Positions 14,664 to 63,258 are shown, counted from the stretch's first letter. The stretch is DNA of 64,000 nucleotides from an uncultured bacterium (GCA_964601275.1 CAZRMV010000001.1:205290-269289), one strand, 5' to 3'. Made by a program: numbers and translations. Notes: generated by a model not told the origin, from the sequence alone.

Positions 14664-14699
14664 GGCGTTCGCTGGAGCTCGTCATGACTATGCCACAGA

Positions 14700-37048: not shown

Positions 37049-37070
37049 GATCGCCTTCAATATACCGTGA

Positions 37071-37099
37071 AATATCGAAGTACACCATCGGTATTTCAA
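37071..37099 (-). promoter_or_regulatory. Sigma70-like promoter (TTGAAA-17 nt-GATATT) in an AT-rich island with an ATACCG...CGGTAT inverted repeat, upstream of the AAA+ ATPase gene
   Basis: Hexamers and spacing read from the minus strand; a local AT-rich patch in an otherwise ~70% GC context. Confidence 0.35.
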
Positions 37100-37228
37100 G
37101 GTTCCCAAGAGCACGATCCATGCCCGCTGAACCGGCTTGGTGGGAGGCGGGACGTGGATTGGTCCTTCCGGGTCCGACACGAATCAGGGTGGTCAGGGTG
37201 TCCCGCCCGCCGGCGCTTCCTTTCTCCA

Positions 37229-37981
37229 TCAGGACTGCCGGAGCGAGAAGCGTCTCATCTCGTTGCGGTCGACACTTTCCAGGCGCAGGTAGTACAGCCC
37301 GTTGGGCAGCTCCTCGCCTTCTTTGTCGCGCGCGTTCCATCGCACTTCGTGCCGGCCGGCATGCAAGACCTTGCCCGGCCGCAGGGGCAGGTCGTCGTCC
37401 TTGGGCTCGAGCAGCTTCAAGACGAATTCATGCACGCCGGGATCCATCGTGGCGTGCAGGAGTTCGCCGCGGAACTTCTTCTGATCGTCGTAGATGCTCA
37501 CGATCACCGATTGGGTACGGGGCAGGACGAAGCGGAACACGATCCGCTTCTTCTGGATCTCGGGGAAGCGGTAGAGAGGAGCGGTTCCGTCGACCGCGCT
37601 GGCAACTCCGCCCTTGAAGAAGACCCAGGTCGTGTCGGCACGGCTGGTCCAGCTCCACTCCTCGTCGAAGTATCCGCCGATCTTCTCCCGGTGGTCGGGT
37701 TCGCCTTTCAGCAGCAGTACCTGTTCGGTGGTCAAGCCCGGCTGCAGGCGGCCCCGGTAGATGGCGTCGAACTGCGCCTGGGGCAGCGAGCCGTGCGTCT
37801 TCAGGTACGACATGCGGGCCTGGCGATGGGGGCCCTCGGGCATGTTCTCCAGCGGGGGCAGCGAGGAGGCGCAGGCGCCGAGGAACAAGGCCAGGACGAG
37901 GGCGGCCGCCCCTCCCGCGGGAGAGGCCCCGCACTGCGAACGAGCCATGCTCTTCCAGAAGTGGAGACCCGTGGTCATCAT
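37229..37981 (-). CDS. Lipoprotein with a degenerate FlgD-Ig/T9SS-CTD-like C-terminus
   Basis: MMTTGLHFWKSMARSQCGASPAGGAAALVLALFLGAC lipobox (alternative start ATG 37948). C-terminus HEVRWNARDKEGEELPNGLYYLRLESVD. The long track ORF upstream of this start is junk. Confidence 0.6.
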   Translation of the reverse strand: MMTTGLHFWKSMARSQCGASPAGGAAALVLALFLGACASSLPPLENMPEGPHRQARMSYLKTHGSLPQAQFDAIYRGRLQPGLTTEQVLLLKGEPDHREKIGGYFDEEWSWTSRADTTWVFFKGGVASAVDGTAPLYRFPEIQKKRIVFRFVLPRTQSVIVSIYDDQKKFRGELLHATMDPGVHEFVLKLLEPKDDDLPLRPGKVLHAGRHEVRWNARDKEGEELPNGLYYLRLESVDRNEMRRFSLRQS

Positions 37982-38121
37982 GGTCGATCTCCTGGACCGA
38001 GGACAAACGGAAACGGCTGGTGTCACCATCACCCCAAGCGACCCGCGCGTCAAGCGGCCCGGCCGTCCACCAGACGTGGCCTCGGGGGTGCGCGTTCCCA
38101 CCGCCGCTTTCCGGTGTGTCC

Positions 38122-38985
38122 TCAACCGGGGGCGTCTTCCGGCGCGCGCGCTTCCTGGAACACCTTCCGGTCTTCCCACCGCACCGCGGTCAGCTCGCCC
38201 CCCCATACGCAGCCGCTGTCCAGGCACCAGGCGTCTTCGCGCAGCATCAATCCCAGCATGGCCCAGTGCCCGAAGATCACCTTCGTCCCCCGCCATCTCC
38301 GGCCGGGAGCGTCGAACCAGGGCACCGCGCCCGCGGGAATCTCGTCCTCCCCCTTGACGAAACCCTCCACCATCTCTCCGCGCCGATCGACCAGCCGCAG
38401 CAAGGTCGCGGCATGGAGGAAGAGCGTTTCCTCGGCCGGGACACCGTCCGTTCCCTGCCGTCCCTCCGCCCGGCTCGAGCGCCCGGGGCGGGCTCCCTCC
38501 GGCGCCGCGGGGTGGCCCCGGCGCCACGAGGCCTCCAGGAGCGGCCCGGCCGCCGCGCCCTGCAGGCGTTCGCTGCACCGGCCGGCCAGGATCCGCGCCT
38601 CCTCCAGGGTCCACCGGGGCAAGAGACCCGCGTGGACCAGGGCGGATCCGTCCTTTACCAGCAACAAGGGCTGCCGGCGGAGCCACGCGACCCGTTCGGC
38701 CGCTTCGGGAGCGTCGAGCAGCCGACCGAGGGCGTCCGGCCGGCCGAAGCCCTCCACCCCGAGAGCCATCGCCAGCAGGTGCATCTCGTGGTTGCCCAGC
38801 ACGAAGTGGACGCAATCCTGGTGGTCGAAGGCCCAATTGAGGACGTGCCGGGAATGGGGGCCCCGGTGGATGAGGTCGCCGGTCAGCCACAGGCGGTCCC
38901 GTCCGGGACGGAACCGGATGCGCCCGAGAAGCCCCTGGAGGGTGTACCAGCAGCCGTGGATGTCGCCGATCGCGTAGGTGGCCAT
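38122..38985 (-). CDS. apaH: Bis(5'-nucleosyl)-tetraphosphatase, symmetrical (diadenosine tetraphosphatase)
   Basis: MATYAIGDIHGC...GDLIHRGP...GNHE metallophosphatase motifs. Confidence 0.85.
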   Translation of the reverse strand: MATYAIGDIHGCWYTLQGLLGRIRFRPGRDRLWLTGDLIHRGPHSRHVLNWAFDHQDCVHFVLGNHEMHLLAMALGVEGFGRPDALGRLLDAPEAAERVAWLRRQPLLLVKDGSALVHAGLLPRWTLEEARILAGRCSERLQGAAAGPLLEASWRRGHPAAPEGARPGRSSRAEGRQGTDGVPAEETLFLHAATLLRLVDRRGEMVEGFVKGEDEIPAGAVPWFDAPGRRWRGTKVIFGHWAMLGLMLREDAWCLDSGCVWGGELTAVRWEDRKVFQEARAPEDAPG

Positions 38986-39187
38986 GAGGCCGCAGCTTGG
39001 GGGGAGAGAAGCGCCCATGCAAGGGCGGAGGAAGATCCTCTTGGGTTTTCCCGGAGTTCCACTAGGATTCACGGGGAGTCGAAGGCTTCATCGTCGGCCG
39101 GCGGGGAGAGCCAACCCGCCGGGGCTTCGGTCACCATCGCGGGATTCCCGCCCGAGAGGAACCCCCGTGATCTCCAGGAGGCAGTCC

Positions 39188-39950: not shown

Positions 39951-42407
39951 TCAGCGGACCACCACCAGGCGCCGGGTGTCGCGGTCGCCCGCGGCCACCA
40001 GCTTGGCCAGGTACACGCCGGAGGCGACGCTACGCCCGGACCCATCCCGGCCGTCCCAGTGCACGGTATGGCTTCCCGCCTCCATCGGGCCGCTCACCAG
40101 GCGGCGCACCAACCGTCCCGCGACATCGTAGATCGCGACGCTCACCTCGCCCCGCCGGGACAGGTGGTAGACCAGGCTGGTGCGCCCCACGGTGGGATTG
40201 GGGTAGGAGCTCTCGAACCAGGCCCGGCTGGAACCCGATTTCGGCTGCACTTGAGGAGTGGGCGTTCCGTCGGGAACCTTCTCCAGGGCCACCAGCGACA
40301 TCGCCGGCAGATCCAGCGCGACGCTCTGGGAGAAGATATCGTAGGCGATGGCCTCGGCGTTGAAGTAGGGAGGCATTCCCTGCCCCGAGCCTTCGTAGCG
40401 GGCGTCCTGGGAATGGATGGCCACGCGCCAGGTCCCGGCCAGGGGAAGCCCTATCCGGTAGCTGCCGTAGTCGGTGTTGGAGAAGTTGGCGACGCACACC
40501 ACCACGTTTCCATTGAGGTCGTAGCGCTGGAAGGCGATGACGTTGCCGCTCTCGTTCATGTGGAAGACCTGGTGGGGCGCCCCGGCCCGCAGCGCGGGAT
40601 TGGTCTTCCGCAGGGCGATGAGATCCTGGTAGTAGCGGTAGATGCCGGCATAGGTGGTCTTCTTGCTCCAGTCGATGCGGTCGGCGAAGTTCGGGCCCCA
40701 GCCGATGCTCTCCAGCCACTCGGTTCCCTGCAGGATGGCGGGAATCCCCGGGGCCAGGAAGACGAGCCCCTCACCCAGCTTGGTCCTTCCCTTGGCGTAC
40801 TGGTCATCGTGGGGGAAGGTGGTGTCGACGATCGTCACGAACCGCTGACCGCCGCTCTCGACCCAGGCTTCGTCGTGCAGCTCGAGATAGTTGAGCACCC
40901 AGCGGCCGCTGAGATAGCTGCCGCCGCCGTTGATGATGTTGCGGATGACATACATCTGCGGATCACCCAGGGCCGCGGTGATGAGCTGCTGGCGCAGGTT
41001 GTCGGTGAAGTAGTCATAGTACTGGGCGTCGAAACCCGCCCCCCCCGACGATGTCGGGGTGGTGACGGCGGCATCGTCGGGAAGCTGCTCGGCGATCACC
41101 ACCTTGTCGACGAAACGTCGATCGACCATGTCGTTGAGCTCTTTCATGAGCAGCCATCCCGAAGCGCCCTGGACTCCATTCTTCATGAAGTCGGCCCCAT
41201 CCATCCGGAAACCGTCCACGTGGTATTCCTCCAACCACATGAGGGCCGAGTCGAGGAAATAGTCGCGCACCTGGGGATTGTCGAAATCGGCCTGGCTGCC
41301 CCAGGGGGTATCGACCGCCGGAGTGTCGAAGTAGATCTGCGAACCGTCGTAGTTCCAAAGGTAGTTGTCGGTGGCGGAGAAGTGGTTCCATACGAGGTCC
41401 ACCAGGACGGCGATTCCGTTCTGGTGGAAGGCGTCCACCATCTGCTTGAACTGGTCCGGGGTGCCGTACTTCCACTCGGGAGCGTACTGGCTGATCGGAT
41501 TGTACCCGGCCGAGATATCTCCGGCGAACTCGGTGATGGGATTGAGCATCACCGTGTTCACGCCCAGTTCGGCCAGAAGGGACGCGCGGGCCGCGATATC
41601 GACGTAGCGGGCGGGAAACGGCGTGGTTCCCACCGGATCATTGCGGCCGGCCCAGGTTCCCACATGCAGTTGGTAGATGACCATCTCCTCCAGGGGGGGA
41701 GTGGCGAAATCCTGGACCACCCAGGAGTAACCCTGGGGATCCTCGACGAAGGAATTGAGATTGTTGCTGGGGTCGAGTCCCCGCGCCCTCGCGTCGGCGT
41801 TCCACACCGAATTGTTGAAGTAGTACTTGTACTGCTGGCGCGAAGAGACCGAGGGAACCAGGGCGATGAAATAGGGGTCGACCCTCTGCATGAGATTGGC
41901 CAGGCCCCAGGAATTGAAGTCTCCGCGCACATAGCAGGTGCTGCGCGTCGGCGACCACACCTTGAACACCGCGCCTCCTCCGCTGGTGAGCGTCGCTCCC
42001 AAGGGCGCATGGGAGAGATGCACGTAGTCCATCAGCCAGCGATTGGTCGGAGGGAGGTCACTGACCCCGTCGGGACCGATGTAGTCGGTATCCGCTCCGT
42101 CGGTCACCTCGATGAGGTAGTAGAGGGTATCGGCGGTGGTCGCCGGTACGGTGGCTTCCCACTGGTCGTAGGGACCGCGGGTTCCCACCACGGCGGCGTC
42201 CACCCACTGCACCGTTCCGTCATCGACCTGGACGCGGGCCACGGTCAGATCGTTCTGGTAGGACTGGAAGCGAACGGTGAAGCTTTCGCCGGCCACGGGA
42301 CAACGGGGTTGCCGGTCGAGCTCGGCCTCGTGGGACAGGCCATTCCATTCGACGTTGCCGTCGGCGGTGGCCAGAACGGTCAGCAGGAGCCAGGGAAGGA
42401 GGTTCAT
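39951..42407 (-). CDS. Secreted 1,4-alpha-glucan branching-enzyme-like GH13 protein (CBM48 + GH13 catalytic core) with a C-terminal T9SS type-A sorting domain
   Basis: Signal peptide MNLLPWLLLTVLATADG (ATG 42407). VWSPTRSTCYVRGDFNSW (CBM48-like), IYQLHVGTW, DGFRMDGADFM, LELHDE GlgB-like motifs. C-terminus ...GSHTVHWDGRDGSGRSVASGVYLAKLVAAGDRDTRRLVVVR. Confidence 0.85.
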   Translation of the reverse strand: MNLLPWLLLTVLATADGNVEWNGLSHEAELDRQPRCPVAGESFTVRFQSYQNDLTVARVQVDDGTVQWVDAAVVGTRGPYDQWEATVPATTADTLYYLIEVTDGADTDYIGPDGVSDLPPTNRWLMDYVHLSHAPLGATLTSGGGAVFKVWSPTRSTCYVRGDFNSWGLANLMQRVDPYFIALVPSVSSRQQYKYYFNNSVWNADARARGLDPSNNLNSFVEDPQGYSWVVQDFATPPLEEMVIYQLHVGTWAGRNDPVGTTPFPARYVDIAARASLLAELGVNTVMLNPITEFAGDISAGYNPISQYAPEWKYGTPDQFKQMVDAFHQNGIAVLVDLVWNHFSATDNYLWNYDGSQIYFDTPAVDTPWGSQADFDNPQVRDYFLDSALMWLEEYHVDGFRMDGADFMKNGVQGASGWLLMKELNDMVDRRFVDKVVIAEQLPDDAAVTTPTSSGGAGFDAQYYDYFTDNLRQQLITAALGDPQMYVIRNIINGGGSYLSGRWVLNYLELHDEAWVESGGQRFVTIVDTTFPHDDQYAKGRTKLGEGLVFLAPGIPAILQGTEWLESIGWGPNFADRIDWSKKTTYAGIYRYYQDLIALRKTNPALRAGAPHQVFHMNESGNVIAFQRYDLNGNVVVCVANFSNTDYGSYRIGLPLAGTWRVAIHSQDARYEGSGQGMPPYFNAEAIAYDIFSQSVALDLPAMSLVALEKVPDGTPTPQVQPKSGSSRAWFESSYPNPTVGRTSLVYHLSRRGEVSVAIYDVAGRLVRRLVSGPMEAGSHTVHWDGRDGSGRSVASGVYLAKLVAAGDRDTRRLVVVR

Positions 42408-42604
42408 CACTACTCCGGGAGCCAAAGGATGCGCTGCGTCGGCTCGCCGGCCGAAGAACGCAGGAGGGGAGCCGCAGTGGATTCGCGCCGGGTCGGCCGT
42501 CGTCTCTTCCGATCGAGGGCAGACCGCGCTCCACAAAGTATACTGGAAATGCGGGATTCCGGTATGGACCGGATCGGGTGGATCGGAGAAAGACCGGTCC
42601 CGCC

Positions 42605-43717
42605 TCAGGAGGCCTGGAAGAGAAGGCGCTTGCCGTCGCGGGGATCGAAGAAATGGGCCCGGGACAGGCGCAGACGCAGGTCGACCTCCTGGTCGACGGC
42701 AACCGGGACATCGGGCGTGATGCGGCTGATGAAGGTCTCCTCGCCCAGGCGCCAGTAGAGCAGGGTCTCGCTGCCCAAGGGTTCGATCACGTCGATGGTC
42801 GAGCGTAGGCGGGCGCCGAAGGTTCCCTCGCGGTCCGCGGTGGCGAGAGGGATGTCCTCCGGCCGCAACCCGAGGACCAGCTTCTTTCCCATCCACTCGT
42901 CCCATGCCGGGGGGATGGTTCCCTCCAGGGGCAGGCGCCGTCCGGCCAGCTCGAGGAAGCCGCCTTCCTCGCCGTGGAGCGAGACGGTCCAGAAGTTCAT
43001 GCGCGGAGTGCCCACGAAGCCGGCCACGAAACGATTCGCCGGCCGCTCGTAGAGTTCCATCGGGGTGGCGATCTGCTGGATCTCTCCCTTCTCGATGACC
43101 GCGATGCGCGTGCCCATGGTCATGGCCTCCACCTGGTCGTGGGTCACGTAGATCATGGTCGCGCCCAGGCGGTGATGCAGGCGGGAGATCTCAGTCCGCA
43201 TGTCCGTCCGCATATCCGGGTCGAGATTGCTCAGCGGCTCATCGAAGAGGAACACCCGGGGCTGGCGGACAATGGCCCGTCCCACCGCCACCCGCTGCCG
43301 CTGCCCACCGCTCAGTTGACCCGGCTTGCGATCAAGCATTTCCGTGATGCCCAGGATCCCAGCTGCGGCGCGCACGCGTTCGTCGATCTCCTTCCGCGGA
43401 GTCTTCCGGATGCGCAGGCTGAGCGACATGTTCTCGTACACACTCATGTGCGGGTAGAGGGCGTAGTTCTGGAACACCATGGCGATGTCGCGCTGGCGCG
43501 GCGGGACATCGTTGACCACCTCGCCGTCGATGCGGATCTCTCCCTCGCTGACCTCTTCCAGTCCGGCAACCATCCTCAACAGGGTGGATTTGCCGCAGCC
43601 GGAGGGGCCGACCAGCACCATGAACTCGCGGTCGGCGACGGCGAAGGTGGCGTCACGCACCGCGGTGACACCTCCTTCGTAGACCTTGCTGACGTGATCG
43701 AGGGTGACCTGGGCCAT
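42605..43717 (-). CDS. Sugar ABC transporter ATP-binding protein (MalK/UgpC/MsmX type, with C-terminal TOBE-like domain)
   Basis: GPSGCGKST, LSGGQRQRVAVGRAI, LFDEPLSNLD. Start ATG 43717 (MAQVTLDHVSKVY) with GGGAG SD. No permease or SBP gene adjacent. Confidence 0.9.
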   Translation of the reverse strand: MAQVTLDHVSKVYEGGVTAVRDATFAVADREFMVLVGPSGCGKSTLLRMVAGLEEVSEGEIRIDGEVVNDVPPRQRDIAMVFQNYALYPHMSVYENMSLSLRIRKTPRKEIDERVRAAAGILGITEMLDRKPGQLSGGQRQRVAVGRAIVRQPRVFLFDEPLSNLDPDMRTDMRTEISRLHHRLGATMIYVTHDQVEAMTMGTRIAVIEKGEIQQIATPMELYERPANRFVAGFVGTPRMNFWTVSLHGEEGGFLELAGRRLPLEGTIPPAWDEWMGKKLVLGLRPEDIPLATADREGTFGARLRSTIDVIEPLGSETLLYWRLGEETFISRITPDVPVAVDQEVDLRLRLSRAHFFDPRDGKRLLFQAS

Positions 43718-43831
43718 CGAGGGCTCCCTGGCTGGAAGTGGGGACGGCGCGCCGCCGCAGTCTATCACGGCCCGGCGGCGGACCGTCAACGGGAGAGGTC
43801 GAATCGGTCGACGGGAGAAGACGGCGGCGGG

Positions 43832-46800
43832 TCACCGGACCATGGTGAGCTTCCTGGTCTCCACCCGATCGCCCGCTCGCAAGCGCGCGAAGTACACCCC
43901 GCTGGCCAGGGGGCGGCCTCTGCCGTCGCGGCCATTCCAGACCACCTGGTGTTCCCCGGCCGCTTGGTTCGCGTCCAGCAGGTGCACCACCACCCGCCCC
44001 GCGGGGTCGAGGATGCTCAGGGACACCGTGCCGGCGTCGGGCACGCGATAGTCCAGGACGACCCGGGGGTTGAAGGGGTTGGGATGGGCCCGCAAGAGAA
44101 GCGGCCCCCGGCGGATCGCCGGGCTTGCCGTGGCGGTGGTTCCAACGATGCGCACGATCCGGGGAGGGGCGTTGCTGCCGGGGTTGGTGATGCTCTCCGC
44201 GCCGCCGGGATCGAGGATGTAGAGCGAGCCGTCGCTGCCGAAGGCGAGGACATCGCTGCCGTAGAGGTTCTCGAATCCCTCGGCGAAGACCGAGACGCTT
44301 CCGTCCGGCTGCACCACGAGGATGCGTTCGTTCACGGCGTCGGCCAGGTAGGCCACCCCTTCACCGAATGCCCCCCGTGGGGCGAAGGCCACGTCGATGG
44401 CCCCGGAGACCAGCGGATCATCCACCCAGATCGAGACCTTGCCCGCCGCGTCCACCCGGAAGACGCGCCCCGTGGAGCCTCCCTGGAGATCGGGATCGCA
44501 GACGATGAGCTGCCCGGCCCACGGATGACCGGCCGGGGCCGGCGCCATTCCCCGCGGGTTGGTCATGCCGGTTGCCCACAGACTGCCGCTGCCGTCGCCT
44601 GCGATGCGATAGATTCCCCCGCCCTCCGGAGACGAGAGGTAGGCCCAGCCGGCCAGCGCGCCGGTTCCCGTGACCACGGCCTCGCAATGGGTGGGGGAGG
44701 GGAAGAGAACCGACCACACCCCATCGCCGTCCCGCCGCAGCAGGTTCAAGGGCGTCGAGACGAAGAGGTCTCCTCCGAGCTTTCCAGTGGTGTCCTGGTC
44801 GATCGAAAGCACCACGTCGAGGAACTCGGGTCGGACCGCACCACTGGACACCCGCTGGTTCGCGTCGACCTCGAGGATCCTCCGGCGGGTCACGTCCCCC
44901 ACGAGGAGGCGGTCCATGCGGGGGGAGGGTCCCCAGGGGTCGGCGGGAAGGATCTCGACTCCCAGGGGATGATGCAGGTTGAAGGGGGCGCGGACCCGGA
45001 CCGCGAAACCCGGCGGAAGGGTGAGCCCGGCGTTTCCCAGGGCGGAGTGGAACACGCTCTTGAAGGGCACCGGGGTGGCGCTTCCATCCTGCGCGGGGAG
45101 TCCGGCGTCGACGGTCAGTTGCCAGGTGCCGCCGTCAGGCCAGGGGGTGGTGAGGGTGAGCACCGCGGTGTCGCCGTTGCGCCAGCTCAGGTGGAAGGGA
45201 ACGGGAGGGGTGAAGGAGAACCACGCCGAAGAGGAGGCCAGCATCGGCCGGTCGAAGTGGACCTCGATGGGCTGGTTGGGATCCTGGATCCACCCGTCGT
45301 GGTGGGGGTCCACGTTGACGACCCGGGGCGTCGTCGCCGCCGGGTCGAGGGTGAAGAGGTACGCGGAGCGGCTGGGCAACCGAAGGGTGATCTGTCCCCC
45401 CGCCTGCACGGTCACACTTTGCCGGGTTTGCAGTCGGTCATACACCACGGCTCCAACGGGCCAGCGGGCTGTGACAGTGACGGTGGTGTCCTGCCACGAG
45501 GTGTTCATGGCCACCAGGACGTCCCAGGTGAAGTGCTGCGGATGGGTGCGCAGGTACACCAGGGTTCCCGCGTCGTCCGCGTCGGCGGAGAGCACCTGGA
45601 GACCTCCCCGGCGCAGGGCCGCGAGCTCGTGCCGGAGATCCTGCAAGCGTCGGATGAGCGCGTAGAGCGGGGTGGCCATGTTGAAGCCGTCCCCCTGGCT
45701 GGGGCCGAAATCCCACTGGCCGTCCCAGAGATCCTCGCGGTTCCAGGGATCGCCGCCCCCGTCATATTCCTGTTCGGTGCCGTAGTAGACAATGGGCATC
45801 CCCGGCCAGGTCAATAGCCAGGTCAAGGCCTGACGCAAGAGGGTGTCGTCCTGTCTCGCCAAGCCCTGCGCGGCCAGGCGGCCCATGTCGTGGTTGTCGA
45901 AGAAGTTGCCGAGTTGCCACCGGACGCTCGGATCGTAGGAATTCGAATCGCCCATGACCCAGGACAGAATGGCGGGCGCTCCCTGGCCCGAAAACACCCA
46001 CCGGGCGGCGAAGGCCATGGGAAACCAGGTCACCGAGTTCAACGCGTAGGCGCCGCCGCCCTGGGTTCCGGTGTAGATTCCCACCTTGGCCGGGTCTCCG
46101 TCGAAGACTTCGCCCATCAGCAGGAAGTTGTCCTTTCCTTCGGCCGCGGCCGCCGCGCGGATCCGGGGTGCGAAGTCCTGCCAGAAGTCGAGTTCGACGT
46201 GCTTGACCGTATCGATGCGGAAACCGTCACAATCGGTTTGCCGGATCAACTGCGAATAGGCGTCGACCAGGATGTCGCGCACCGCGGGAAGCTCGGTTTT
46301 CAGGTCGTCGAGACCGAAGAGTTCACCGCGGATCTGCTCGGGGTCGGTGAAGTCCTGGATCTCGCCGAAGGAGTGATACCAGGAGAGATCGTCGAATGGG
46401 GGAGGATATCGGTCGCCGTTGTTCCACCAGCCGAGCTGGTAACTCCCCGAGGGATCGTAGGCCGGATAGGCGGGATCCGTTGATCCGATGAGATCGCCCA
46501 TGTGGTTGGCGACCACGTCCAGGATGACGTAGAGCCCCCGGGCATGGGCCGCCTGGACGAAGGTCTGCAACGCGGAGAGTCCTCCCATCTGGGGCGAGAT
46601 CGTGAACAGGTCGCGCGCCGCGTAGCCGTGGTATTCACCGTGCGTGTTGAGAACCACCGGGGAGATCCAGACCGCATCCACCCCCAGGCCTTCGATGTAA
46701 TCCAGCTTCTCCTGCAGGCCCTGGAAGTCGCCCCCGTGCGTACGGCTTCCATCGGCCGGATCGTAGCTGCCTCCCAGATTGTCATTCGATGGATCCCCGT

Positions 46801-46933: not shown

Positions 46934-47137
46934 CGGTCGAAACCTCGAGGGGAAAGACCTCGACTCCCGCCGGATCTTCCGACTCGAAGGATCGTGCGTT
47001 GCGGTCGAGGAGTGGTCGAGACCACGAGAGTCTAGCACAACCGCGTGGATCCGGCGTTTCTGATTGTCGTTCGCATGGGATCAGGCTAGCCTTGGCGGCA
47101 TGTCGTGTCTGCGCGAAGACGGTCGGGAGGTCCGTGG

Positions 47138-51788: not shown

Positions 51789-53930
51789 ATGAACCGTGTC
51801 CTGCATCGCCGCCGGGCGGAGATCCTCCTCTTCTTCGCGTTCCTGGGGGGGATTCTCCTTCTTGCCACCGGATCCCGTGCCCGGCTCGACACCCCGCACT
51901 CCCCGGTTCCCCGGTCACCTTCGTCGGACGGATCCGCGGCCCCAGGACACACGAGGGGAAATCCCCCCCCACAAGACCCCTGGGAGATCGACATCACCCC
52001 CGGTCTCTCGCGCGAGGTCATCTTCACCAACAAGAAGGCCACCCACTACGCCTGCGACACCTCCGCCCGGGAGATGCGCGCCTACGCCGGCCTGTACACC
52101 AGCATGCACGAGAGCCTGGATGATTTCGTGTGGGCGATCGACGGCCGGGTCCTGGAGCCGGCCGAAGCACTGCGGGTTCGGGTGTGGCCCTGGCTCCTGC
52201 GGCGGGAATACGAGGGGGAATGGGCCGAGGAGGTCTTCCTGCCCCTGGACGAGCCGGTGCTGTTGGTGCGGCTGGAAGGTCCCGGCGGCAAGCGGTGGAT
52301 GTTCACCCCGCGGGTCGATCTGCGCTTCATCTGGGAGACGCCGACTCCCGCCTACGAGACTCGGGAGCTCGACGGTGTACTGTGTATCCGGAGGAAGGGA
52401 TGGCAACCGGGCGCCGGCGCCTACGCCTGGCTCGCGGTCGCGACGAATCCTCCCGGCAGTTTCTTCGGGAACCCGAAGCAGTGGACCTTCACCCACCCCC
52501 GGGATGCCGCGCGCCGCGCAATGGGGCGGACCCACCCCTTCGACCCGGGGGAGATCGCGGGAAAGTGGCCCAAGGACCGAAACGCGGTCGACGTGGCGGT
52601 CGCCCAGGGGGCCTCGGCCGAGGACGCGGCGGAGCTGGCCCGTCGAGCGCTCCAGGAACGAAGAGCCTGGCTGAAGCAGCGGCGCGCCCACGTGGAAGGG
52701 CTTCTGCGGGCCGCCTCGGTGGACCTGGGACGGGAGGAGTGGAACCGCGCCTATCGCTGGGCCCGCGCGAGCATGGACGAGCTGATCATGGACGCGCGGG
52801 GCGAGGGCATCTACGCCGGCTTCCACTGGTTTCCCAACTACTGGGGACGTGACACCTTCATCTGCCTGCCCGGCGCGGCGCTCGACCTCGGCCGGCTCGA
52901 CGCCGCGCGGAGCATCCTGCGCTCCTTCCTGCGCTTCCAACGCACCGACCGCAACGATCCCTTCCTGGGCCGTCTTCCGAACATCGTCAACCCCGGTGCG
53001 TTGCAGTACCAGGGGGTGGACGGCACCTGGTGGCAGGTGCGCGCCAGCTACCGCTACATCCGGGCTCGGCGGGCCCGGGGCGACGCCGATGAAGAGTACG
53101 AACGCGAGTTCGCCGCCGCGCTCTCCTTGATGATCGACGGAGCCGAGCGCAAGGCGGTCGACGAGTACGGCCTGCTGTGCCACGGGGATGGGGAGACCTG
53201 GATGGACGCGGGAGGCTCGGCGCATCCTTTTTCCCCCCGGGGAAACCGGGCGGTGGAAGTCCAGGCGCTTTACTACAACGCCCTGCGGGTGGCCCAGTGG
53301 CTGGCCGGCGAGCAGGGCCGCAGCGAGGAGGCCACCGGGTACGCGACCCTGGCCAGCCGCACCGCCGGCAACTTCCGTGCCCTGTTCTGGAGTTCCCGAC
53401 GGCAGCAGCTCGCCGACCATCTCAACCCCGATGGCAGCGGCGATTTCCAGATCCGCCCCAACACCATCCTGGCGGTCTTCGCCGTGGAGGACGAATGGCC
53501 TCCGCTGCTCACCCGCGGTCAGCTGGAAAGCGTGGTGAACCGCGCCTGGGAGAGGCTGGTGTTGCCCTACGGGGTGACCAGTCTCGACCCCCACGACCCG
53601 CAGTTCAAACCGCGGCACCTCGATCTCGACCACTACCCCTTCGACGCCGCCTACCACAACGGGGACGTGTGGTACTGGCTGAGCGGACCGATGATCCACG
53701 CCCTGTGCAAGGTCGGGCGGGTCGATGATGCCTTGACCCTCGTGCAGCCCCTGGTGGACGAGATGCTCTACCACGGGGCGGTCGGCGCGATCCGGGAGAT
53801 CCGCGACGGCGGGGACACCGGCACGACCGAGGAGTTCGGGGGTGCGACCTTCCAGGCGTGGTCGATGGCCGAGTTCCTCCGGGCCGTCCACGAGGATCTC
53901 GCCCCGGCCCTGGGCTGGCCGGTGCGCTGA
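51789..53930 (+). CDS. Amylo-alpha-1,6-glucosidase (glycogen-debranching-enzyme C-terminal-domain family) with an N-terminal TM anchor
   Basis: First in-frame ATG after the previous gene's stop. N-terminal hydrophobic AEILLFFAFLGGILLLA. (alpha/alpha)6-barrel GDE-type motifs (GFHWFPNYWGRDTFI, WMDAGG, NGDVWYW). Confidence 0.8.
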   Translation: MNRVLHRRRAEILLFFAFLGGILLLATGSRARLDTPHSPVPRSPSSDGSAAPGHTRGNPPPQDPWEIDITPGLSREVIFTNKKATHYACDTSAREMRAYAGLYTSMHESLDDFVWAIDGRVLEPAEALRVRVWPWLLRREYEGEWAEEVFLPLDEPVLLVRLEGPGGKRWMFTPRVDLRFIWETPTPAYETRELDGVLCIRRKGWQPGAGAYAWLAVATNPPGSFFGNPKQWTFTHPRDAARRAMGRTHPFDPGEIAGKWPKDRNAVDVAVAQGASAEDAAELARRALQERRAWLKQRRAHVEGLLRAASVDLGREEWNRAYRWARASMDELIMDARGEGIYAGFHWFPNYWGRDTFICLPGAALDLGRLDAARSILRSFLRFQRTDRNDPFLGRLPNIVNPGALQYQGVDGTWWQVRASYRYIRARRARGDADEEYEREFAAALSLMIDGAERKAVDEYGLLCHGDGETWMDAGGSAHPFSPRGNRAVEVQALYYNALRVAQWLAGEQGRSEEATGYATLASRTAGNFRALFWSSRRQQLADHLNPDGSGDFQIRPNTILAVFAVEDEWPPLLTRGQLESVVNRAWERLVLPYGVTSLDPHDPQFKPRHLDLDHYPFDAAYHNGDVWYWLSGPMIHALCKVGRVDDALTLVQPLVDEMLYHGAVGAIREIRDGGDTGTTEEFGGATFQAWSMAEFLRAVHEDLAPALGWPVR

Positions 53931-57522: not shown

Positions 57523-60500
57523 ATGCGCGTCGTTCCCTCCCGTCGCACCCTGGACGTGCTTCTTTCTCCACCGCCTCCCTCCGGCGCGCTACGTATCGCT
57601 CTCGTTGGCACCCTGGGGTGGCTTCTCGCCCTGGGCATGGCTCCCACTCCGGCCGCCATGGCCACCACCTGGAACACGCCCATCGTCGATGGCCCCATCC
57701 ACGACCTCCCCGATTCCAATGACTGGCAGCCGGACGAGCTCTTCTTCGAGGACCCGGCGGGAGACAGCAACTGGGGACCCTTCAACGACTTGCAGGGACT
57801 GTGGGTCACCTGGGACGAGAACGGTCTGTATGTCGGGGTGAGCGGGCAGCTCTGGGACACCGCCGGTCCGGGCACCGGGGGCAACTCGGTCAACGTCTAC
57901 CTCGATGTCGATTTCGGGCGGGGCACCGGGATCTCCAACATGGACGCGATCGACCCGAACGCCTTGGGCGCGGTCACCCGCAATCTCTGGAGGCCGCTCC
58001 AGGTCGGCGGCGGCTTCGGCGCCGATTTCGGGTTCACCTCGTGGGCGGGCACCTACGATCGGGGGATCCTCGATCTCTTCGATCCGCTTCTGCCGGTGAA
58101 TCTCATCACCGACGAGAGCCGGCAGGTCGGGGTGAATCAGCCCTGTCTCGACCCGACCGGCCCCTGCCAGGGTTTCGACAAGCAGGGAAACTTCTCCTTT
58201 GAATTCTTCATCCCCTGGCACGATCTCTACGCCCGGCTCTATCCGAACCTGACCACGACCGTCCCTCCCGGGGCGGCGATCGCCCTGGTGGTGAACATCG
58301 TCGGCGGCGGTGATTCGATGTCGGAGGAGTCGATTCCCTCGCAATCGACCTTCCGGGTGATCGACCGGCCGGTCACCCTGGTGGTCGACGCCGATGCCGA
58401 CGGGGTGCCCGACCGGGACTGGCCTCCCTCGGGCAGTATCTCGGGAACCGTGAACTTGAGCGATCCGGCGGACACCACCACCGTGGTCGACGTAGTGGCC
58501 TGGCTGCCCGACGGAACCGAAGCCGCGCGCGACCAGACGCCCCCGGGAGGGGGCGCCTACCAGCTGACCCGCCTGGGCGCCGGGGATTATACCGTCGGTA
58601 TCGAGAGCATCTTCTACGTGGCCAATCCGCAGACCGTGCAAGTGGGAGAGAACCAGGATGTCACCGGAATCGACTTCGACGCCTTGCGGGTGCGCAGCGG
58701 GATCGATCTGCGGCTGCGCTACCTGGACGGTCCGGAGAGCAGCTCACGCAGCCTCGATCTGGCGTTCCGGCTGAGCGGGCGCACCGATCTGGGATCGGAT
58801 TTCTCGGTCGATTTCATCATTGGACCGCAGGATTCCCTGGTGGTGGGTCTGCGCCCGGTCCCCGCCGGCGACTATCACCTGAGCGTGGTGCCCCAGTGGC
58901 CCACGTCGCAACCGGTACCCGATCCGCAACGCTCCGGATATACCCGCATCGAACGGGATCTGCGGGTCCCCGACAACGATGGCATCGTCGATCTGGGCAC
59001 CTTGGACCTGAAGGTGGTGCGGCCCACCCAGGTGGCGTTCTTCGCTCCCGACGAGACGGGCGACGGAGAGCGGATCACCGCGGATTTCACTACGGTGAGT
59101 CTCCCCTCGGAGAACTTCTACGCCTACCTGGTGGTGGAGGCCGGGTTCGTCGACGACGAGGGAAACGAAGCGATCTACGGCCTGCCGGGGCTGCAGATCA
59201 CCACCACCACCATGGATCCGGCGTTTGCGACCCAGGGAGTGGTCGAACTGTGGTCGGCGGCGGACACCACCCGCAGCGCCCAGCCGCTGGCCGATCCCTC
59301 GGTGTGGCTACCCCCTTCGGGCGAGCCACCGGTGGGGAGGGCCCGTTTCCTGTTGACCGACGACGCCCAGGAGGTCGTTCGTCTCTTCGCCGCGGGCAGC
59401 GGGATGGACGGCGTCCTCGAGGTGGGGGTCCAGCCCATCGAGCCGGCCGAGATCGCCCTGTCCGCCCAGGGCGATGCGATGGTGGCCGGGGCACAGATCC
59501 CGCTGCAGGGGCGGCTGCTGGACGTGGCCGGCAACCCGGTGTTCCTCAACGAGTTCCTGGTCTTCTTCGATATCACCCCGAATGTTCCGGGGGTGGGTCC
59601 CAGTCTCGCCGTCACCGCGAGCGACGGTTCGTTCGGCACCGATGGCGACGTGGCCTTCACCACCACGGTGAGCGGCGACTACACCGTGCAAGCCAAAGGC
59701 ACCACCGACTCGGGGAAGGATATCGTCTCGCCCCAGCTCGCCTTCCATGTGGCCCCGGATCTCCCCTACCAGCTGGAACTGGTCGCCGAGTTGAAGAAGG
59801 TGGACGGCAGCCCGGTGGGGCTGAGCTATCGCGTCCGGCAGACCGACCGGTTCGAGAATTCCTCGCCGGCCACCGGGGTCACGGTGCAGATCCAGGCCGG
59901 TCCGCCGGAGATCGTGGCCTCGGCTCCGGCCAGCGTCGTCCTGGACGACGCGGACGCGACCGGGACCTTCGATGTGCAACTCGTTCCGGGAAGAACCGGG
60001 GTGGTCGAGTGCACCGTGACCGTGCCGGGTCTCGCCCGGCAAAGCACCACCCTGCGCACCCCGGTGCTTTTCGGCCTGGTGGCCACCGACGAGGTGGCGC
60101 CCGAGAGCGACACGAACCACAACGCGAATCCGGACATCGATCTGACCGCGTTGTACGCGTTCAGCCAGAACGACACCCTCGTGGTGAAGCTTCCATTTCG
60201 CAGCAACTTCAACGGCGCCCACATGGCGCTCCTGTTGGAATCGACGGGAACCCCCGAGGGAGCGGTCGGCGACTATTTCGGCTTTCCCATCTTCTACCTG
60301 CACGACCTGTTGCCCGATTTCGTCTTCACCTACAAGTACGCCGCCGACGATTACGCCGACCTGCGGCGGCCGCCTCCGGGGGGCGATCCCAGCCAATGGC
60401 AGTGGTACGATATGCAGGCTGCCGCCTGGGTCAGCGAATTCAATGACAATGTGAACGCCAAGGCGCAGGGTTGGGTGTCCAAGGACGAGAGCGCGGTCAC

Positions 60501-63258
60501 CTTCCGCATTCCCTTGACGGTGCTCGGTGGGGGTTTCACCGCGGGTCGCGATACCCTCCGGGCGCAGGTGTACGTGATGCAGGAAGACGGGGGCGAGAAG
60601 AGGCCGGCCCTCGATTCGGTGCCCCACGACGCCACCGTGGACATGGTGCCCCCTCCCGGGGCGGGAGAATGGTGGGAAAATCTTCCGCCGCGCGTCGACC
60701 TGAAGAACTGGGCCGTCTTCGTGCCCGAGGTCTTGCCCGGGCTGTTGAGCCTGGAAGATGTCGCGTTCGATCCTCCCGAGGTCACCCAGGGGGAGACCAC
60801 TCTCTTGACCGCGCGTCCGGTGATCGATGTCCAGGCGGTCCCCGATCCCATCTTCCAGGTCTTTGCCGATTTCTCCCGCTTCGGAGGCGACGCGCTCACT
60901 CCCATGGACGACGAGGGCCGAAACGGCGATCTCGTGGCGGGAGACGGCATCTACAGCGTCGAATTGACCATCGATCCTTCCGAACTCGAAGGGGACGCCG
61001 CCATTCTCGTCCAGGCCACCGAACTCAATTCGGGGGAAAGGGCCTCGGCCACCGCCGACCTGGCGATCACCGGGCAGCCCCAACTGCAACCCATCTTGAG
61101 CTTCGACGACCCCGCGGGGGACGATCACGGCCCCAATCATCCAGGGGAGAAATTCCTCTACTACACCTATCCCACCAACGGCGTCTTCTTCCCCGGTGTG
61201 TTCGACCTGTTGGGCATGCAGGTCTTCGATGCGGGCGAGAAGCTGGTGTTCCGGGTCGATGTGGGCGAAGTCACCGACCCCGCCCAACCCGACGCGGCCA
61301 ACTGGAATGCGCCGTTCCCGACCGACCAGTTGTGTCCCGAGGGTTCCCGCATCGACCTGAACCTGCAGAACGTGGTGGTTCTCATCGACAACATTCCCGG
61401 GAAGGGTTCGATCAAGCTGCCCGACAACCGTTGGGCCGATGTCGCCCGGCAGGACGCCTGGGATTACGCGGTGATCGCCGACGGCTGGTGGAAGGGGATG
61501 GTGCGCAGCAACGGATCGTCGTCTTCGGGAAGTTGGGACATCTTCCGCAACGACGAGGACTATTTCTTCTGTGTCAACGCCATCGACAACACCATCGACA
61601 TGTTCGTGGACAAGAAGGTCCTCGAAGTGGGAGGGCTGAGCGGAGCGGAACTGCAAGAGGTGATCGACCAATGGGACTTCATCGTCCTGATGAGCGGGCA
61701 CGATGGCGATTCCAACGACAACAACTGGGGAGGGATCCGTTGGGTCAACGAGGGCCGGCCGCAGTGGCAGTTCGGCGGGGGCAAGAACGGAGAGTCGGGC
61801 CGGGAGCGTGACGCCAACATCATCGACATCATGACCCACGCGGGGCTCGACCCCACCGGGAAGCCGAAGCCGCCCGGCCGGCCCCAGGAGGAGCAACTCG
61901 ACTTCACCACCCCGGAAGCCGAGCGCCGCTTCTCCGACCCCAAGATCCTGGTATCGGTCGAGTTGGAGGCCGAGGAGCTCATCGACAACGTCCCCCCCCA
62001 GATCACCTTCCTGAACGATCCCGATCGCGCCCTGCGGCAGTGGGCCATCCTCAAGGGAGCGCCGGTCTCTCCCATCGTGCGGATCGAGGACGACAACGAC
62101 GTGGTCTCGGCGAAGATGCGCTGGCGCGGAGTAGGAGAACCCCGGAGCGCGGCCCGCGAAGCGCCGCTCGGCCTCTTGCGCAGCGATCTGGACAGCGATG
62201 GGGTCACCTTCATCGGCGACGTGCCTTTCGAGCAGTTCAGCGACCCTTCGGTGACGAACCTGGTATCCCGGTTGAAGCCGGATGGCACCATCGAGAAGGT
62301 GCGGTACATGATCCTCTCGTTCGAGGCGGTCGACCGGGTTGGGAACGCCACCCCCCAAAGCAGCACCGAATACCTGCTCGAGGTTCCCGAACAGCCGGTC
62401 GAGGAAGTGATCCAGTCGGTGCTTCCCGATTCCCTGGAGGAAGGCGGCACCGATCCGGTGCAATTCGACCTGCCCGAGGGAAGCCGCCTTCGCCTGCCGC
62501 GTGGGTTCGTCGATGATCTCTTCGCGCGCGATGACAGCTCACGGGTGGAATTGCGGTACCGCGCGTTCGCCCTGGAGGATCTCGACCTGGCTCCGCACGG
62601 CGGAAGCAACCCGAGCGTCCTGCTTCCGGAGAACCGCTATCTGCAGGCGGCCCGGTCGTTCCAGCTCTTCTGGGTCCATGGAGACAGCACGGTCGAGGAG
62701 ATCCAACAGCTTCCCGAATCGGCCGAGTTCTCCATCCACTTCCCCCATTTCCTGATCGAAGGGGAAAGCCCGCCCAATCTCCAGTACTTCCACTACAGCG
62801 AAGCGTCGAAACGCTGGGTCCTGGTGGGAGGCCATAGCGAGGTCGAGGGCAGCACCTTGACCGCCGAGGTGGTGGAGACCGGTCTGTATGGGGTCTTCAC
62901 CAAGGGATCGAAGCTCAAGGACGAGACCCTGGTCACCGGTCTGCAGTTGTCGCCGAATCCGTTCTCGCCCAACGGGGATGGAGTGCACGATTTCCTGAAC
63001 ATCAGCTATGTGATTCCCGACCAGATCAACCAGGTCGTGGTCGAGATCTACGACCTGCGGGGTGAGAAGGTTCGCACCCTCCAGCTCTTCGAGGGAATCG
63101 GAGATGTGACGAACCGTACCACCGGCCTGGTGTGGGACGGACGCGATGAGCGGGGCAACTATGTTCCCATGGGTATCTACGTCTGCCGGGTCGAGGTGGA
63201 GGGGAAGTTCCTAAAGCGCTGGGAACGGGCGACCGCGGCGGTGGTGGTGGTACGATGA
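57523..63258 (+). CDS. Giant secreted multidomain protein (1911 aa) with a C-terminal T9SS/FlgD-Ig-like sorting domain; function unknown, possibly a cell-surface carbohydrate-binding or adhesin scaffold
   Basis: ATG 57523 (GAAGGGG SD). Signal peptide MRVVPSRRTLDVLLSPPPPSGALRIALVGTLGWLLALGMAPTPAAMA. A related D-P-A-G-D...GP... module appears twice, near residue 100 and near residue 1230. C-terminus ...NPFSPNGDGVHDFLNISY...GLVWDGRDERGNYVPMGIYVCRVEVEGKFLKRWERATAAVVVVR. Confidence 0.8.
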   Translation: MRVVPSRRTLDVLLSPPPPSGALRIALVGTLGWLLALGMAPTPAAMATTWNTPIVDGPIHDLPDSNDWQPDELFFEDPAGDSNWGPFNDLQGLWVTWDENGLYVGVSGQLWDTAGPGTGGNSVNVYLDVDFGRGTGISNMDAIDPNALGAVTRNLWRPLQVGGGFGADFGFTSWAGTYDRGILDLFDPLLPVNLITDESRQVGVNQPCLDPTGPCQGFDKQGNFSFEFFIPWHDLYARLYPNLTTTVPPGAAIALVVNIVGGGDSMSEESIPSQSTFRVIDRPVTLVVDADADGVPDRDWPPSGSISGTVNLSDPADTTTVVDVVAWLPDGTEAARDQTPPGGGAYQLTRLGAGDYTVGIESIFYVANPQTVQVGENQDVTGIDFDALRVRSGIDLRLRYLDGPESSSRSLDLAFRLSGRTDLGSDFSVDFIIGPQDSLVVGLRPVPAGDYHLSVVPQWPTSQPVPDPQRSGYTRIERDLRVPDNDGIVDLGTLDLKVVRPTQVAFFAPDETGDGERITADFTTVSLPSENFYAYLVVEAGFVDDEGNEAIYGLPGLQITTTTMDPAFATQGVVELWSAADTTRSAQPLADPSVWLPPSGEPPVGRARFLLTDDAQEVVRLFAAGSGMDGVLEVGVQPIEPAEIALSAQGDAMVAGAQIPLQGRLLDVAGNPVFLNEFLVFFDITPNVPGVGPSLAVTASDGSFGTDGDVAFTTTVSGDYTVQAKGTTDSGKDIVSPQLAFHVAPDLPYQLELVAELKKVDGSPVGLSYRVRQTDRFENSSPATGVTVQIQAGPPEIVASAPASVVLDDADATGTFDVQLVPGRTGVVECTVTVPGLARQSTTLRTPVLFGLVATDEVAPESDTNHNANPDIDLTALYAFSQNDTLVVKLPFRSNFNGAHMALLLESTGTPEGAVGDYFGFPIFYLHDLLPDFVFTYKYAADDYADLRRPPPGGDPSQWQWYDMQAAAWVSEFNDNVNAKAQGWVSKDESAVTFRIPLTVLGGGFTAGRDTLRAQVYVMQEDGGEKRPALDSVPHDATVDMVPPPGAGEWWENLPPRVDLKNWAVFVPEVLPGLLSLEDVAFDPPEVTQGETTLLTARPVIDVQAVPDPIFQVFADFSRFGGDALTPMDDEGRNGDLVAGDGIYSVELTIDPSELEGDAAILVQATELNSGERASATADLAITGQPQLQPILSFDDPAGDDHGPNHPGEKFLYYTYPTNGVFFPGVFDLLGMQVFDAGEKLVFRVDVGEVTDPAQPDAANWNAPFPTDQLCPEGSRIDLNLQNVVVLIDNIPGKGSIKLPDNRWADVARQDAWDYAVIADGWWKGMVRSNGSSSSGSWDIFRNDEDYFFCVNAIDNTIDMFVDKKVLEVGGLSGAELQEVIDQWDFIVLMSGHDGDSNDNNWGGIRWVNEGRPQWQFGGGKNGESGRERDANIIDIMTHAGLDPTGKPKPPGRPQEEQLDFTTPEAERRFSDPKILVSVELEAEELIDNVPPQITFLNDPDRALRQWAILKGAPVSPIVRIEDDNDVVSAKMRWRGVGEPRSAAREAPLGLLRSDLDSDGVTFIGDVPFEQFSDPSVTNLVSRLKPDGTIEKVRYMILSFEAVDRVGNATPQSSTEYLLEVPEQPVEEVIQSVLPDSLEEGGTDPVQFDLPEGSRLRLPRGFVDDLFARDDSSRVELRYRAFALEDLDLAPHGGSNPSVLLPENRYLQAARSFQLFWVHGDSTVEEIQQLPESAEFSIHFPHFLIEGESPPNLQYFHYSEASKRWVLVGGHSEVEGSTLTAEVVETGLYGVFTKGSKLKDETLVTGLQLSPNPFSPNGDGVHDFLNISYVIPDQINQVVVEIYDLRGEKVRTLQLFEGIGDVTNRTTGLVWDGRDERGNYVPMGIYVCRVEVEGKFLKRWERATAAVVVVR

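Follow-up and report, generated by a model that had tools for sequence, protein, structure and literature searches.

A GH13 protein with predicted export signals at both ends, from an uncultured bacterium, appears to belong to a clade related to but distinct from the glycogen branching enzymes

What is a protein that combines the catalytic core of a glycogen branching enzyme with signals for export at both of its ends? This question is raised by a gene in a 64,000-nucleotide stretch of DNA from an uncultured bacterium (GCA_964601275.1, CAZRMV010000001.1:205290-269289; this whole stretch is henceforth the window), the product of which the original prediction described as a homolog of the branching enzyme GlgB that is secreted and tagged with the C-terminal sorting domain (CTD) of type IX secretion systems (T9SS). 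As read directly from the sequence, the gene is an intact open reading frame (ORF) on the minus strand, starting with the ATG at 42407, ending with the stop codon at 39951-39953 and encoding 818 amino acids; the coordinates first given for it, 39951-42407, proved exact and the frame is complete at 818 codons. Public gene callers have recorded the same 818-residue product on several contigs, the longest of which measures 535 kb, and its GC content at third codon positions (GC3) is in line with that of the other genes of the window (~65% GC). A longer in-frame start, reaching to 42905, was dismissed as it would overlap the upstream malK-like gene, and when the surroundings of the gene were scanned for promoters and terminators, no signal exceeded shuffled expectation.

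The protein (hereafter the target) is, as judged from sequence comparisons, a member of a separate clade of glycoside hydrolase family 13 (GH13), related to but distinct from the glycogen branching enzymes (BEs). It comprises, in order, a predicted signal peptide, a CBM34-like domain, a CBM48 domain, the GH13 A and B domains, domain C, a linker and the CTD (Table 1). Searches with Pfam hidden Markov models (HMMs) recover CBM_48 at residues 135-199 (28.8 bits, cutoff 22.4), the alpha-amylase domain (PF00128, 67.8 bits), Alpha-amylase_C at residues 618-709 (59 bits) and FlgD_ig (PF13860) at residues 753-806 (48.3 bits). Alignment with GlgB, TreZ and GlgX shows that the conserved GH13 regions I-IV and VII are present, as DLVWNH (I), GFRMDGADF (II), VIAEQLPD (III), LELHDE (IV) and PGIPAILQGTEW (VII); the two motifs by which the GlgB-type core had originally been recognized, DGFRMDGADFM and LELHDE, indeed occupy residues 398-408 and 508-513. 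The GH13 catalytic set is complete, with D337, H342, R401, D403, E440, H511 and D512 invariant across 51 sequences, and on this residue evidence the target is predicted to be catalytically competent. An AlphaFold2 model generated from the alignment of 51 homologues (mean predicted local distance difference test score, pLDDT, of 87.5) contains two N-terminal β-sandwiches, the barrel, domain C, a linker disordered at residues 716-726 and a C-terminal seven-stranded β-sandwich. The internal loops of lowest confidence in this model, residues 290-300 (~41508-41540) and 514-519 (~40851-40868), flank the active site. In the SAGYN loop the target and its close orthologues display an alanine where GlgB and TreZ keep the tryptophan of SWGY (WGY being also found in GlgX), and after the catalytic aspartate the same proteins have AW(P/V)xSGG where GlgB has VVHGK; these loops could have a role in shaping substrate or acceptor specificity.

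The relationship to the BEs is evident from both structure and sequence. In a Foldseek search of the PDB, the 50 highest-ranking matches are BEs without exception, first of GH13_9 and then of GH13_8, with the best fold match being the Rhodothermus profundi BE (target-normalised TM score 0.84, root-mean-square deviation 3.1-3.7 Å, 26% identity). Further, hhalign aligns target residues 144-709 to residues 136-724 of Escherichia coli GlgB with a probability of 99.9, and the target matches the solved GlgBs with E = 2e-39. This similarity, like the architecture common to the homologue clusters described below, lies far beyond chance. In common with GlgB (R. profundi BE, 8zqa; E. coli GlgB, 1m7x) the target has the domain order, with CBM48 followed by A/B and C, the fold, the catalytic triad, the HDE motif of region IV and GG(L/A)GF; it differs from GlgB in possessing a predicted signal peptide, a CBM34-like domain and a CTD, and in having no linkage to glgC or glgA. 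Membership in GH13_8, the eukaryote-type BEs, was rejected, as the matches amount to 70-83 bits versus 137 bits for GH13_9.

Assignment to the GlgB family proper, on the other hand, fails by several measures. Against the GlgB equivalog HMMs of NCBIfam the target scores 226.7, 220.5 and 185.3 bits, where the respective cutoffs are 741, 577 and 463.95 (~30% of cutoff), even as the alignment spans the full length; with the same HMMs the positive control, a MalQ-GlgB fusion protein of a related genome, attains 932.5, 905.5 and 865 bits. In a neighbor-joining (NJ) tree of 141 core sequences (100 bootstraps, GlgX as the outgroup), a distance-based tree that includes few GlgB references, canonical GlgBs inclusive of the MalQ-GlgB fusion are united with 100% bootstrap support, TreZ likewise with 100%, and the target and its orthologues with 99%, outside GlgB. 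Within this tree set the core of the target is 24-28% identical to the GlgBs, 27-38% to a wider clade around it and 59-73% to its orthologues. The target additionally lacks 16 residues that in GlgB make up the β4-α4 loop (ASMLYxDYSRxEGEWxPNxxGGRENLEA, with the region II extension DAVASM(L/I)Y), and because this loop is missing the spacing from the nucleophile to the acid/base is short, being 37 residues in the target and all orthologues versus 53 in four out of four GlgBs (35-36 in TreZ and GlgX, which are hydrolases). In the eukaryotic BEs of GH13_8, too, this position has a long loop as well as an extension of the SMLY type. From GlgB to the target, DWVPxH is changed to DLVWNH, SWGYQ to SAGYN, AEEST to AEQLP and HDEVVHGK to HDEAWxxSGGQR. 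The glutamate following the catalytic aspartate (HDE) is kept, as is GG(A/L)GF, which comes after region III. The region I tryptophan of GlgB (W336 in the E. coli BE) contacts the donor chain (PMC10254366), and with DLVWNH in region I this donor-contact residue is lost. Thus, the GlgB-homolog label stands with regard to the BE-type fold and domain order, and falls with regard to family membership, whether judged by HMMs, tree or motifs, and so also by the standard of refutation that the original prediction had set for itself; the target is very probably not a GlgB orthologue.

The annotation pipelines of JGI name homologues of the target '1,4-alpha-glucan branching enzyme', which would agree with it being an ordinary cytoplasmic GlgB, with a signal peptide and CTD that are artefactual or irrelevant. 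Apart from the failure of all equivalog cutoffs and the position outside the GlgB clade, this explanation is opposed by the fact that both a signal peptide and an extracellular module at the C-terminus are conserved in two phyla (see below), and by the genomic context. The 1359-residue MalQ-GlgB fusion, in which MalQ is a GH77 4-alpha-glucanotransferase, is encoded directly downstream of an orthologue of the target on OZ245046.1, a 6.45-Mb Eiseniibacteriota chromosome (L005 12592-16671; L051 covers the same region), and so a genuine GlgB and a target-type protein are coexisting, distinct paralogues. Neither glgC nor glgA is found among the neighbours of the target in the window. We accordingly regard a cytoplasmic GlgB as very improbable. 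The MalQ-GlgB fusion is in itself an unusual bifunctional glycogen-remodelling arrangement. A paper on a polysaccharide utilization locus of Pontibacter was set aside, as its enzyme is a canonical GH13_9 member.

Two other sets of GH13 enzymes deserve comparison. TreZ (malto-oligosyltrehalose trehalohydrolase, GH13_10) is similar in its CBM48 and GH13 domains, in a DxVxNH-like region I, in the short β4-α4 loop and in an HMM score near that of GlgB, namely 225.4 bits against a cutoff of 538.8, with only model positions 3-315 of 545 aligned. However, TreZ has NHDQ(xGN) in region IV where the target has LHDE, and forms its own fully supported clade; the spacing from the acid/base to the stabiliser is 72 residues in the target versus 96-97 in TreZ, which is longer by ~25 residues on account of a β5-β7 insertion, and no treY is present near the target. 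Weaker but significant matches are obtained with the NCBIfam HMMs for type I pullulanase (96 bits) and GlgX (82 bits). These matches, the agreement with GlgX in loop lengths near the nucleophile and the CBM48 domain, which is also a hallmark N-terminal module of debranching enzymes, could be taken to indicate a secreted α-1,6 debrancher of the pullulanase/isoamylase-like type that trims the branch points of amylopectin or glycogen outside the cell for the neighbouring amylases. Yet the matches are partial and much weaker than those to BE and TreZ, the YNWGYDP-type motif of pullulanases is absent (the target having SAGYNP), and the position of GlgX in the tree is not independent evidence, given its use as the outgroup; hence, a debranching role seems unlikely to us.

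The extent of the clade was gauged by an exhaustive search over 1.84 billion cluster representatives (clusters at 50% identity), which recovered 591 representatives at E <= 1e-30, with canonical GlgBs and further GH13 relatives being counted among them. A broad set of these at 200-380 bits and 32-40% identity scores above canonical GlgB (~100-145 bits), and more than 120 homologue clusters at ~60% identity have the architecture of the target. No clade member that was checked attained the GlgB or TreZ cutoffs of the NCBIfam HMMs, and no characterised member was found in the PDB, NCBIfam, the source names or the literature searched. Many members of the wider clade are 900-1900 residues long and carry CBM20, CBM25, CBM53, X25, Big_7 or Ig modules, and by a crude hydrophobicity test signal-peptide-like or lipoprotein-like N-termini are present in at least 69 of 126 full-length representatives, with ~21 appearing cytoplasmic. 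The prevalence of signal-peptide-like N-termini in the wider clade, together with the CBM20, CBM25, CBM53, X25 and Ig modules, speaks for an extracellular location. A cytoplasmic branch of ~600 residues, without a signal peptide, is found in cultured Alphaproteobacteria and Planctomycetes (including Frigoriglobus), an example being the protein encoded on the Palleronia sp. LCG004 plasmid NZ_CP136760.1 at 191354-193147 (L002 8977-10770), which is 34.6% identical to the target. Members of this branch are inconsistently annotated as alpha-amylase family glycosyl hydrolase, branching enzyme or trehalohydrolase, and they have no glycogen context.

An orthologue scan with one genome per species yielded 221 matched stretches encoding a relative, of which the best 80 were examined; in all, the orthologues are spread over more than 200 species genomes. 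Among these 80, the proteins from Candidatus Eisenbacteria/Eiseniibacteriota and Krumholzibacteriota are 52-59% identical to the target and match it over its full length including the CTD, whereas those from Phycisphaerae/Planctomycetota (L070-L077, L080-L082, L087-L093) are 54-58% identical and match only residues ~8-714. The Phycisphaerae proteins start with a signal peptide followed by DNNVEWxG, and their C-terminus consists of dockerin type-I-like repeats rather than a CTD (PF00404 at 25.3 and 23.1 bits, cutoff 22.9; a third at 21.1 bits is below the cutoff). Because these proteins keep the signal peptide and end in dockerin-like repeats, export is probably ancestral and the anchor phylum-specific, and the occurrence of such repeats in place of the CTD points to transfer of the catalytic body between phyla accompanied by a swap of the anchor module. 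The apparent export of the same catalytic body in two unrelated phyla is in our view the strongest evidence for an extracellular function.

The target itself bears out the claim of export signals at both ends, with a predicted signal peptide that is supported by its homologues and a C-terminal domain above the cutoff for TIGR04183. Residues 1-16 (MNLLPWLLLTVLATA, followed by DG) are hydrophobic and end in A-x-A with no lipobox cysteine, and the pLDDT is below 50 for residues 1-13. In ~50 homologues, which is nearly all of them, a canonical signal peptide with a basic n-region precedes the same mature start, the conserved mature N-terminus of the homologues being (P)DxNVEWxGxSH. The comparative evidence for a signal peptide is stronger than that from the target sequence itself. 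At the other end, the T9SS type A sorting domain of NCBIfam (TIGR04183) matches residues 735-816 of 818, at the extreme C-terminus, with 42.6 bits against a cutoff of 23, and so the claim of a T9SS-type C-terminus likewise survives. Taken together, we consider it highly likely that the target is extracellular.

The N-terminal domain that follows the signal peptide has no Pfam match over its first ~105 mature residues. With phmmer it aligns over ~105 residues to residues 6-113 of the Thermoactinomyces vulgaris α-amylase I (TVA I) with E = 2e-9, the motif NVEWNGL at the mature start being common to both, and with the family profile the match to TVA I extends over its residues 1-120 (profile positions 24-138). 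The predicted mature start of the target corresponds in the alignment to residue 6 of the mature TVA I protein, and one homologue has a precomputed match to PF02903. TVA I is a secreted enzyme whose domain N binds starch, and this domain is placed in CBM34 by CAZy. Unlike the target, which fuses a CBM34-like domain to a BE-like core, TVA I has a neopullulanase-like core and no CBM48. The alternative identification of the N-terminal domain of the target as the N1 domain of GlgB was dropped in favor of CBM34, hhalign having detected no sequence similarity of the domain to N1 of E. coli GlgB.

As for the CTD, six ORFs in the window end in the same ~85-residue domain (VVVR, TMVR, VLVR, etc.), as detected with a family CTD HMM, from which we conclude that it is a genome-wide sorting tag. 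A predicted Sec signal peptide and a C-terminal β-sandwich of ~85 residues (TIGR04183) on a polysaccharide-degrading enzyme are features that the target shares with the T9SS type-A CTD cargo, for which a cargo rule has been described (PMC12618676). It departs from this cargo in that its host is Eisenbacteria-like rather than of the Bacteroidota, and in that its core is BE-like and not amylase-like. Directly downstream of the 1866-residue CTD protein in the window is a gene for an outer-membrane β-barrel protein. This protein and the PorV/PorQ model NF033709 can be aligned from end to end, with a score of 63.5 bits that falls short of the cutoff (90), and its Eisenbacteria homologues are annotated as hypothetical proteins. 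Some homologues of the barrel have precomputed matches to the Pfam families PF19572, PF11751 and PF03349 (FadL/TodX), of which PF19572 is the PorV family and PF11751 the PorP/SprF family. The barrel at 63255 may be a divergent T9SS shuttle protein. One review extends the T9SS to the FCB superphylum (PMC12398890). The literature searched for secreted or T9SS-linked branching enzymes contained nothing relevant. In sum, the sorting tag is confirmed and the T9SS machinery is inferred.

In the window, the target is encoded by the last of three same-strand genes, the others being those for a CTD-tagged GH13 amylase and a MalK-like ATPase. The further genes of the extracellular α-glucan cluster to which it belongs, namely those for the GDE_C-type, neopullulanase-like, Glucodextran_C-CTD and PorV-like proteins, are all situated no more than 20 kb from the target, and the neighbourhood moderately supports a catabolic role in this window. 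Elsewhere, one orthologue adjoins a sugar ABC transporter with a binding protein and two permeases, and another a MalT-like regulator. A functional analogy may be drawn with the Bacteroides Sus surface α-amylase BoGH13ASus (reference cited in PMC11239784), in which a surface GH13 enzyme with carbohydrate-binding modules feeds an uptake system. The target matches this protein distantly and over part of the barrel only (67 bits with phmmer, 101 bits with a profile). BoGH13ASus (PDB 8dge) carries a CBM48 and is a lipoprotein of another GH13 subfamily, where the target has a CTD instead.

Several other products of the window merit mention. The protein encoded at 54169-57273 combines two or three copies of CBM48/AMPK1_CBM, X25 modules and a neopullulanase/maltodextrin-glucosidase-like GH13 domain, and has no CTD; its architecture recalls bacterial GH13_49-type proteins (PMC11239784). 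The secreted protein encoded at 57658-63258 (1866-1941 residues) includes a choice-of-anchor-X-like stretch, and most of its length is without a known family. A gene for an AAA_14/DUF4143 ATPase at 35891-37180 (minus strand), between the gene for an AdoHcy hydrolase and that for a small CTD-like protein, coincides with a dip in GC to 0.62 versus ~0.66, and may have been acquired from elsewhere. At 1905-6224 (minus strand) is encoded a protein of 1439 residues with Sortilin/Vps10-type BNR repeats and a C-terminal DUF1684, and a similar Sortilin-Vps10 protein neighbours an orthologue of the target (L006).

Table 1. Positions in the window of the parts of the target and of the genes and ORFs around it; residue numbers are those of the target
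Feature	Position	Strand	Remarks
Signal peptide (predicted), residues 1-16, MNLLPWLLLTVLATA, cleavage A16/D17	42360..42407	-	Hydrophobic core and A-x-A
N-terminal β-sandwich, CBM34-like, residues ~17-125	42033..42359	-	Homology to TVA I domain N; pLDDT >90
CBM48, residues ~135-225	41733..42005	-	PF02922; aligns with GlgB CBM48
GH13 (β/α)8 barrel and domain B, residues ~240-610	40578..41690	-	PF00128; GlgB and TreZ alignments
Asp403, predicted nucleophile	41199..41201	-	Aligns with R. profundi BE D305 and E. coli BE D405; invariant in 51 homologues
Glu440, predicted general acid/base	41088..41090	-	Aligns with R. profundi BE E356; invariant
Asp512, predicted transition-state stabiliser (HDE)	40872..40874	-	Aligns with R. 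profundi BE D424 (and Glu513 with E425); both invariant
Domain C, all-β, residues ~611-710	40278..40577	-	PF02806; strands in model
Flexible Pro/Thr/Ser-rich linker, residues ~711-734	40206..40277	-	Sequence; pLDDT <50 at 716-726
C-terminal sorting domain (T9SS type A/FlgD-Ig-like), residues 735-818, ending RRLVVVR	39954..40205	-	TIGR04183, PF13860
Shine-Dalgarno-like GGAG	42413..42416	-	5 nt 5' of the target ATG; direct sequence reading
MalK/MsmX-type sugar ABC-transporter ATPase	42605..43789	-	Upstream neighbour; Pfam ABC_tran, OB_MalK, TOBE_2
Secreted GH13 α-amylase, Big_5 and CTD, 1033 aa	43832..46933	-	Pfam; CTD HMM 97.5 bits
GDE_C-type amylo-α-1,6-glucosidase	51789..53930	+	PF06202, 230 bits; α-glucan cluster
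Signal peptide, repeated CBM48, X25 and neopullulanase-like GH13 protein, 1034 aa	54169..57273	+	
1866-aa protein, Glucodextran_C and CTD	57658..63258	+	
PorV/PorQ-family-like outer-membrane β-barrel, 296 aa	63255..64000, on to ~64145 (L014 19087-19977)	+	NF033709
CTD ORF (stop-to-stop), target	39954-43190	-	CTD HMM
CTD ORF (stop-to-stop)	43835-47080	-	CTD HMM
CTD ORF (stop-to-stop)	12471-14681	-	CTD HMM
CTD ORF (stop-to-stop)	57379-63255	+	CTD HMM
CTD ORF, weak match	37232-39061	-	CTD HMM, 38 bits
CTD ORF, weak match	29521-32409	+	CTD HMM, 24 bits

The best explanation that we can offer, and one to which we assign about an even chance, is that the target is an exported multi-module GH13 protein of an uncharacterised BE-related clade, not the GlgB of the organism, and that it functions as a surface or secreted depolymerase of α-glucans. 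Under this proposal, it would be exported through the Sec pathway by means of the 16-residue signal peptide, and the CTD, going by the nature of the domain, would take it through the outer membrane, or place it on that membrane, along a T9SS-like route. The CBM34-like and CBM48 domains would, by homology, dock the enzyme on external starch or glycogen, and the GH13 centre with Asp403, Glu440 and Asp512 would cut α-1,4-glucan chains by the retaining double-displacement mechanism that is the chemistry of GH13. In what is the least certain step, the glycosyl-enzyme intermediate would mostly be resolved by water, which would make the target an endo-type depolymerase; the resulting oligosaccharides could be imported by a maltodextrin-type ABC system, the gene for the MalK-like ATPase being immediately upstream. 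That the target acts on α-glucans we believe with high confidence, while the choice of hydrolase over transferase is a slight preference at most. This lean to hydrolysis derives from the disappearance of the BE loop and motifs, the TreZ/GlgX-like loop geometry, the accessory modules of the kind found in secreted amylases and the degradative cluster; the homology that links the N-terminal domain to domain N of TVA I, a secreted hydrolase, also favors a degradative role.

A number of observations weigh against this explanation. With regard to export, the signal peptide of the target is unusually short and without a basic n-region, and that of the closest relative (70% identity) is equally short; core T9SS genes were not seen in the 64-kb window, where the PorV-like match is below its cutoff; no paper linking the T9SS to Eisenbacteria was found in the literature searched, and several reviews confine this system to Bacteroidota. 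With regard to a degradative role, α-glucan genes are present within 10 kb in only ~7 of the 80 orthologue loci, and conserved synteny of such genes is therefore largely rejected. With regard to the activity, true BEs, i.e., transferases, account for all of the closest matches to solved proteins in both structure and sequence, and the clade has kept the BE-like GG(A/L)GF and the glutamate of HDE, which in modelling of the R. profundi BE is a key acceptor-positioning residue (PMC11464733). The call between hydrolysis and transfer thus depends on indirect arguments.

It is these last points that lend substance to the alternative of an extracellular transglycosylase, in line with the α-1,6 transferase that the original prediction offered beside a debrancher, which would pass the cleaved chain to a 6-OH (branching), to its own end (giving branched cyclic dextrins by cyclisation) or to a 4-OH (disproportionation), and so remodel external starch or glycogen. 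Besides the closeness of the target to the BEs in fold, domain order and the shared HDE glutamate and GG(A/L)GF, the clade lies closer to GlgB than it does to TreZ in the NJ tree, in which TreZ and GlgX are split off with 75% bootstrap support; moreover, from general knowledge of GH13, such a reaction needs no nucleotide sugar and is hence feasible outside the cell. Against this, the β4-α4 loop of GlgB with its ASMLY extension is absent, and the missing stretch holds the acceptor contacts D314, S316 and R317 predicted in the R. profundi BE model. When the acceptor contacts of that model (PMC11464733) are mapped on the alignment, only ~4-5 of 12 are retained in the target, to which the loss of the region I donor-contact tryptophan is to be added, and the N-terminal domain and the CBMs of the relatives are of types found in secreted hydrolases. 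Since these contacts are modelled, and since it is not yet settled how bacterial BEs bind the acceptor (PMC10254366), the active-site residues provide only a weak lean. On balance, we view the transglycosylase as rather less probable than the depolymerase, while giving it more credit than the debrancher.

If transfer were nevertheless the activity, a more speculative scenario, which we consider doubtful, is that the clade represents unrecognised BE-descended extracellular transglycosylases making branched or cyclic dextrins that the producer can bind and import and that the amylases of competitors use poorly. By analogy, such privatisation of the substrate would resemble that by the secreted cyclodextrin glucanotransferases, though on a BE scaffold that is surface-anchored by a CTD or by dockerin-like repeats, and this parallel is to be held just as tentatively. 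In practical terms, a transferase would make available new enzymes for the modification of starch, to dextrins that are cyclic or slowly digested, which already act extracellularly, and a hydrolase, as in the preferred depolymerase reading, would be an example of a branching-enzyme scaffold turned depolymerase.

Whichever of these holds, the target belongs to a large and conserved GH13 clade, for the most part extracellular, to which the annotation as branching enzyme is at present wrongly applied. Hundreds of its proteins are automatically labelled '1,4-alpha-glucan branching enzyme', as a result of which glycogen-synthesis capacity is overstated and an exported family remains hidden. The swap of the C-terminal module between phyla offers a clean natural case of modular surface-anchoring signals, and the presence of the CTD in this family adds indirect evidence for T9SS-like sorting outside Bacteroidota. 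The members traced in Eisenbacteria, Krumholzibacteriota and Phycisphaerae are all from uncultured organisms, and it is the branch of ~600 residues that provides culturable handles on the clade; a single characterised protein would annotate the whole family.

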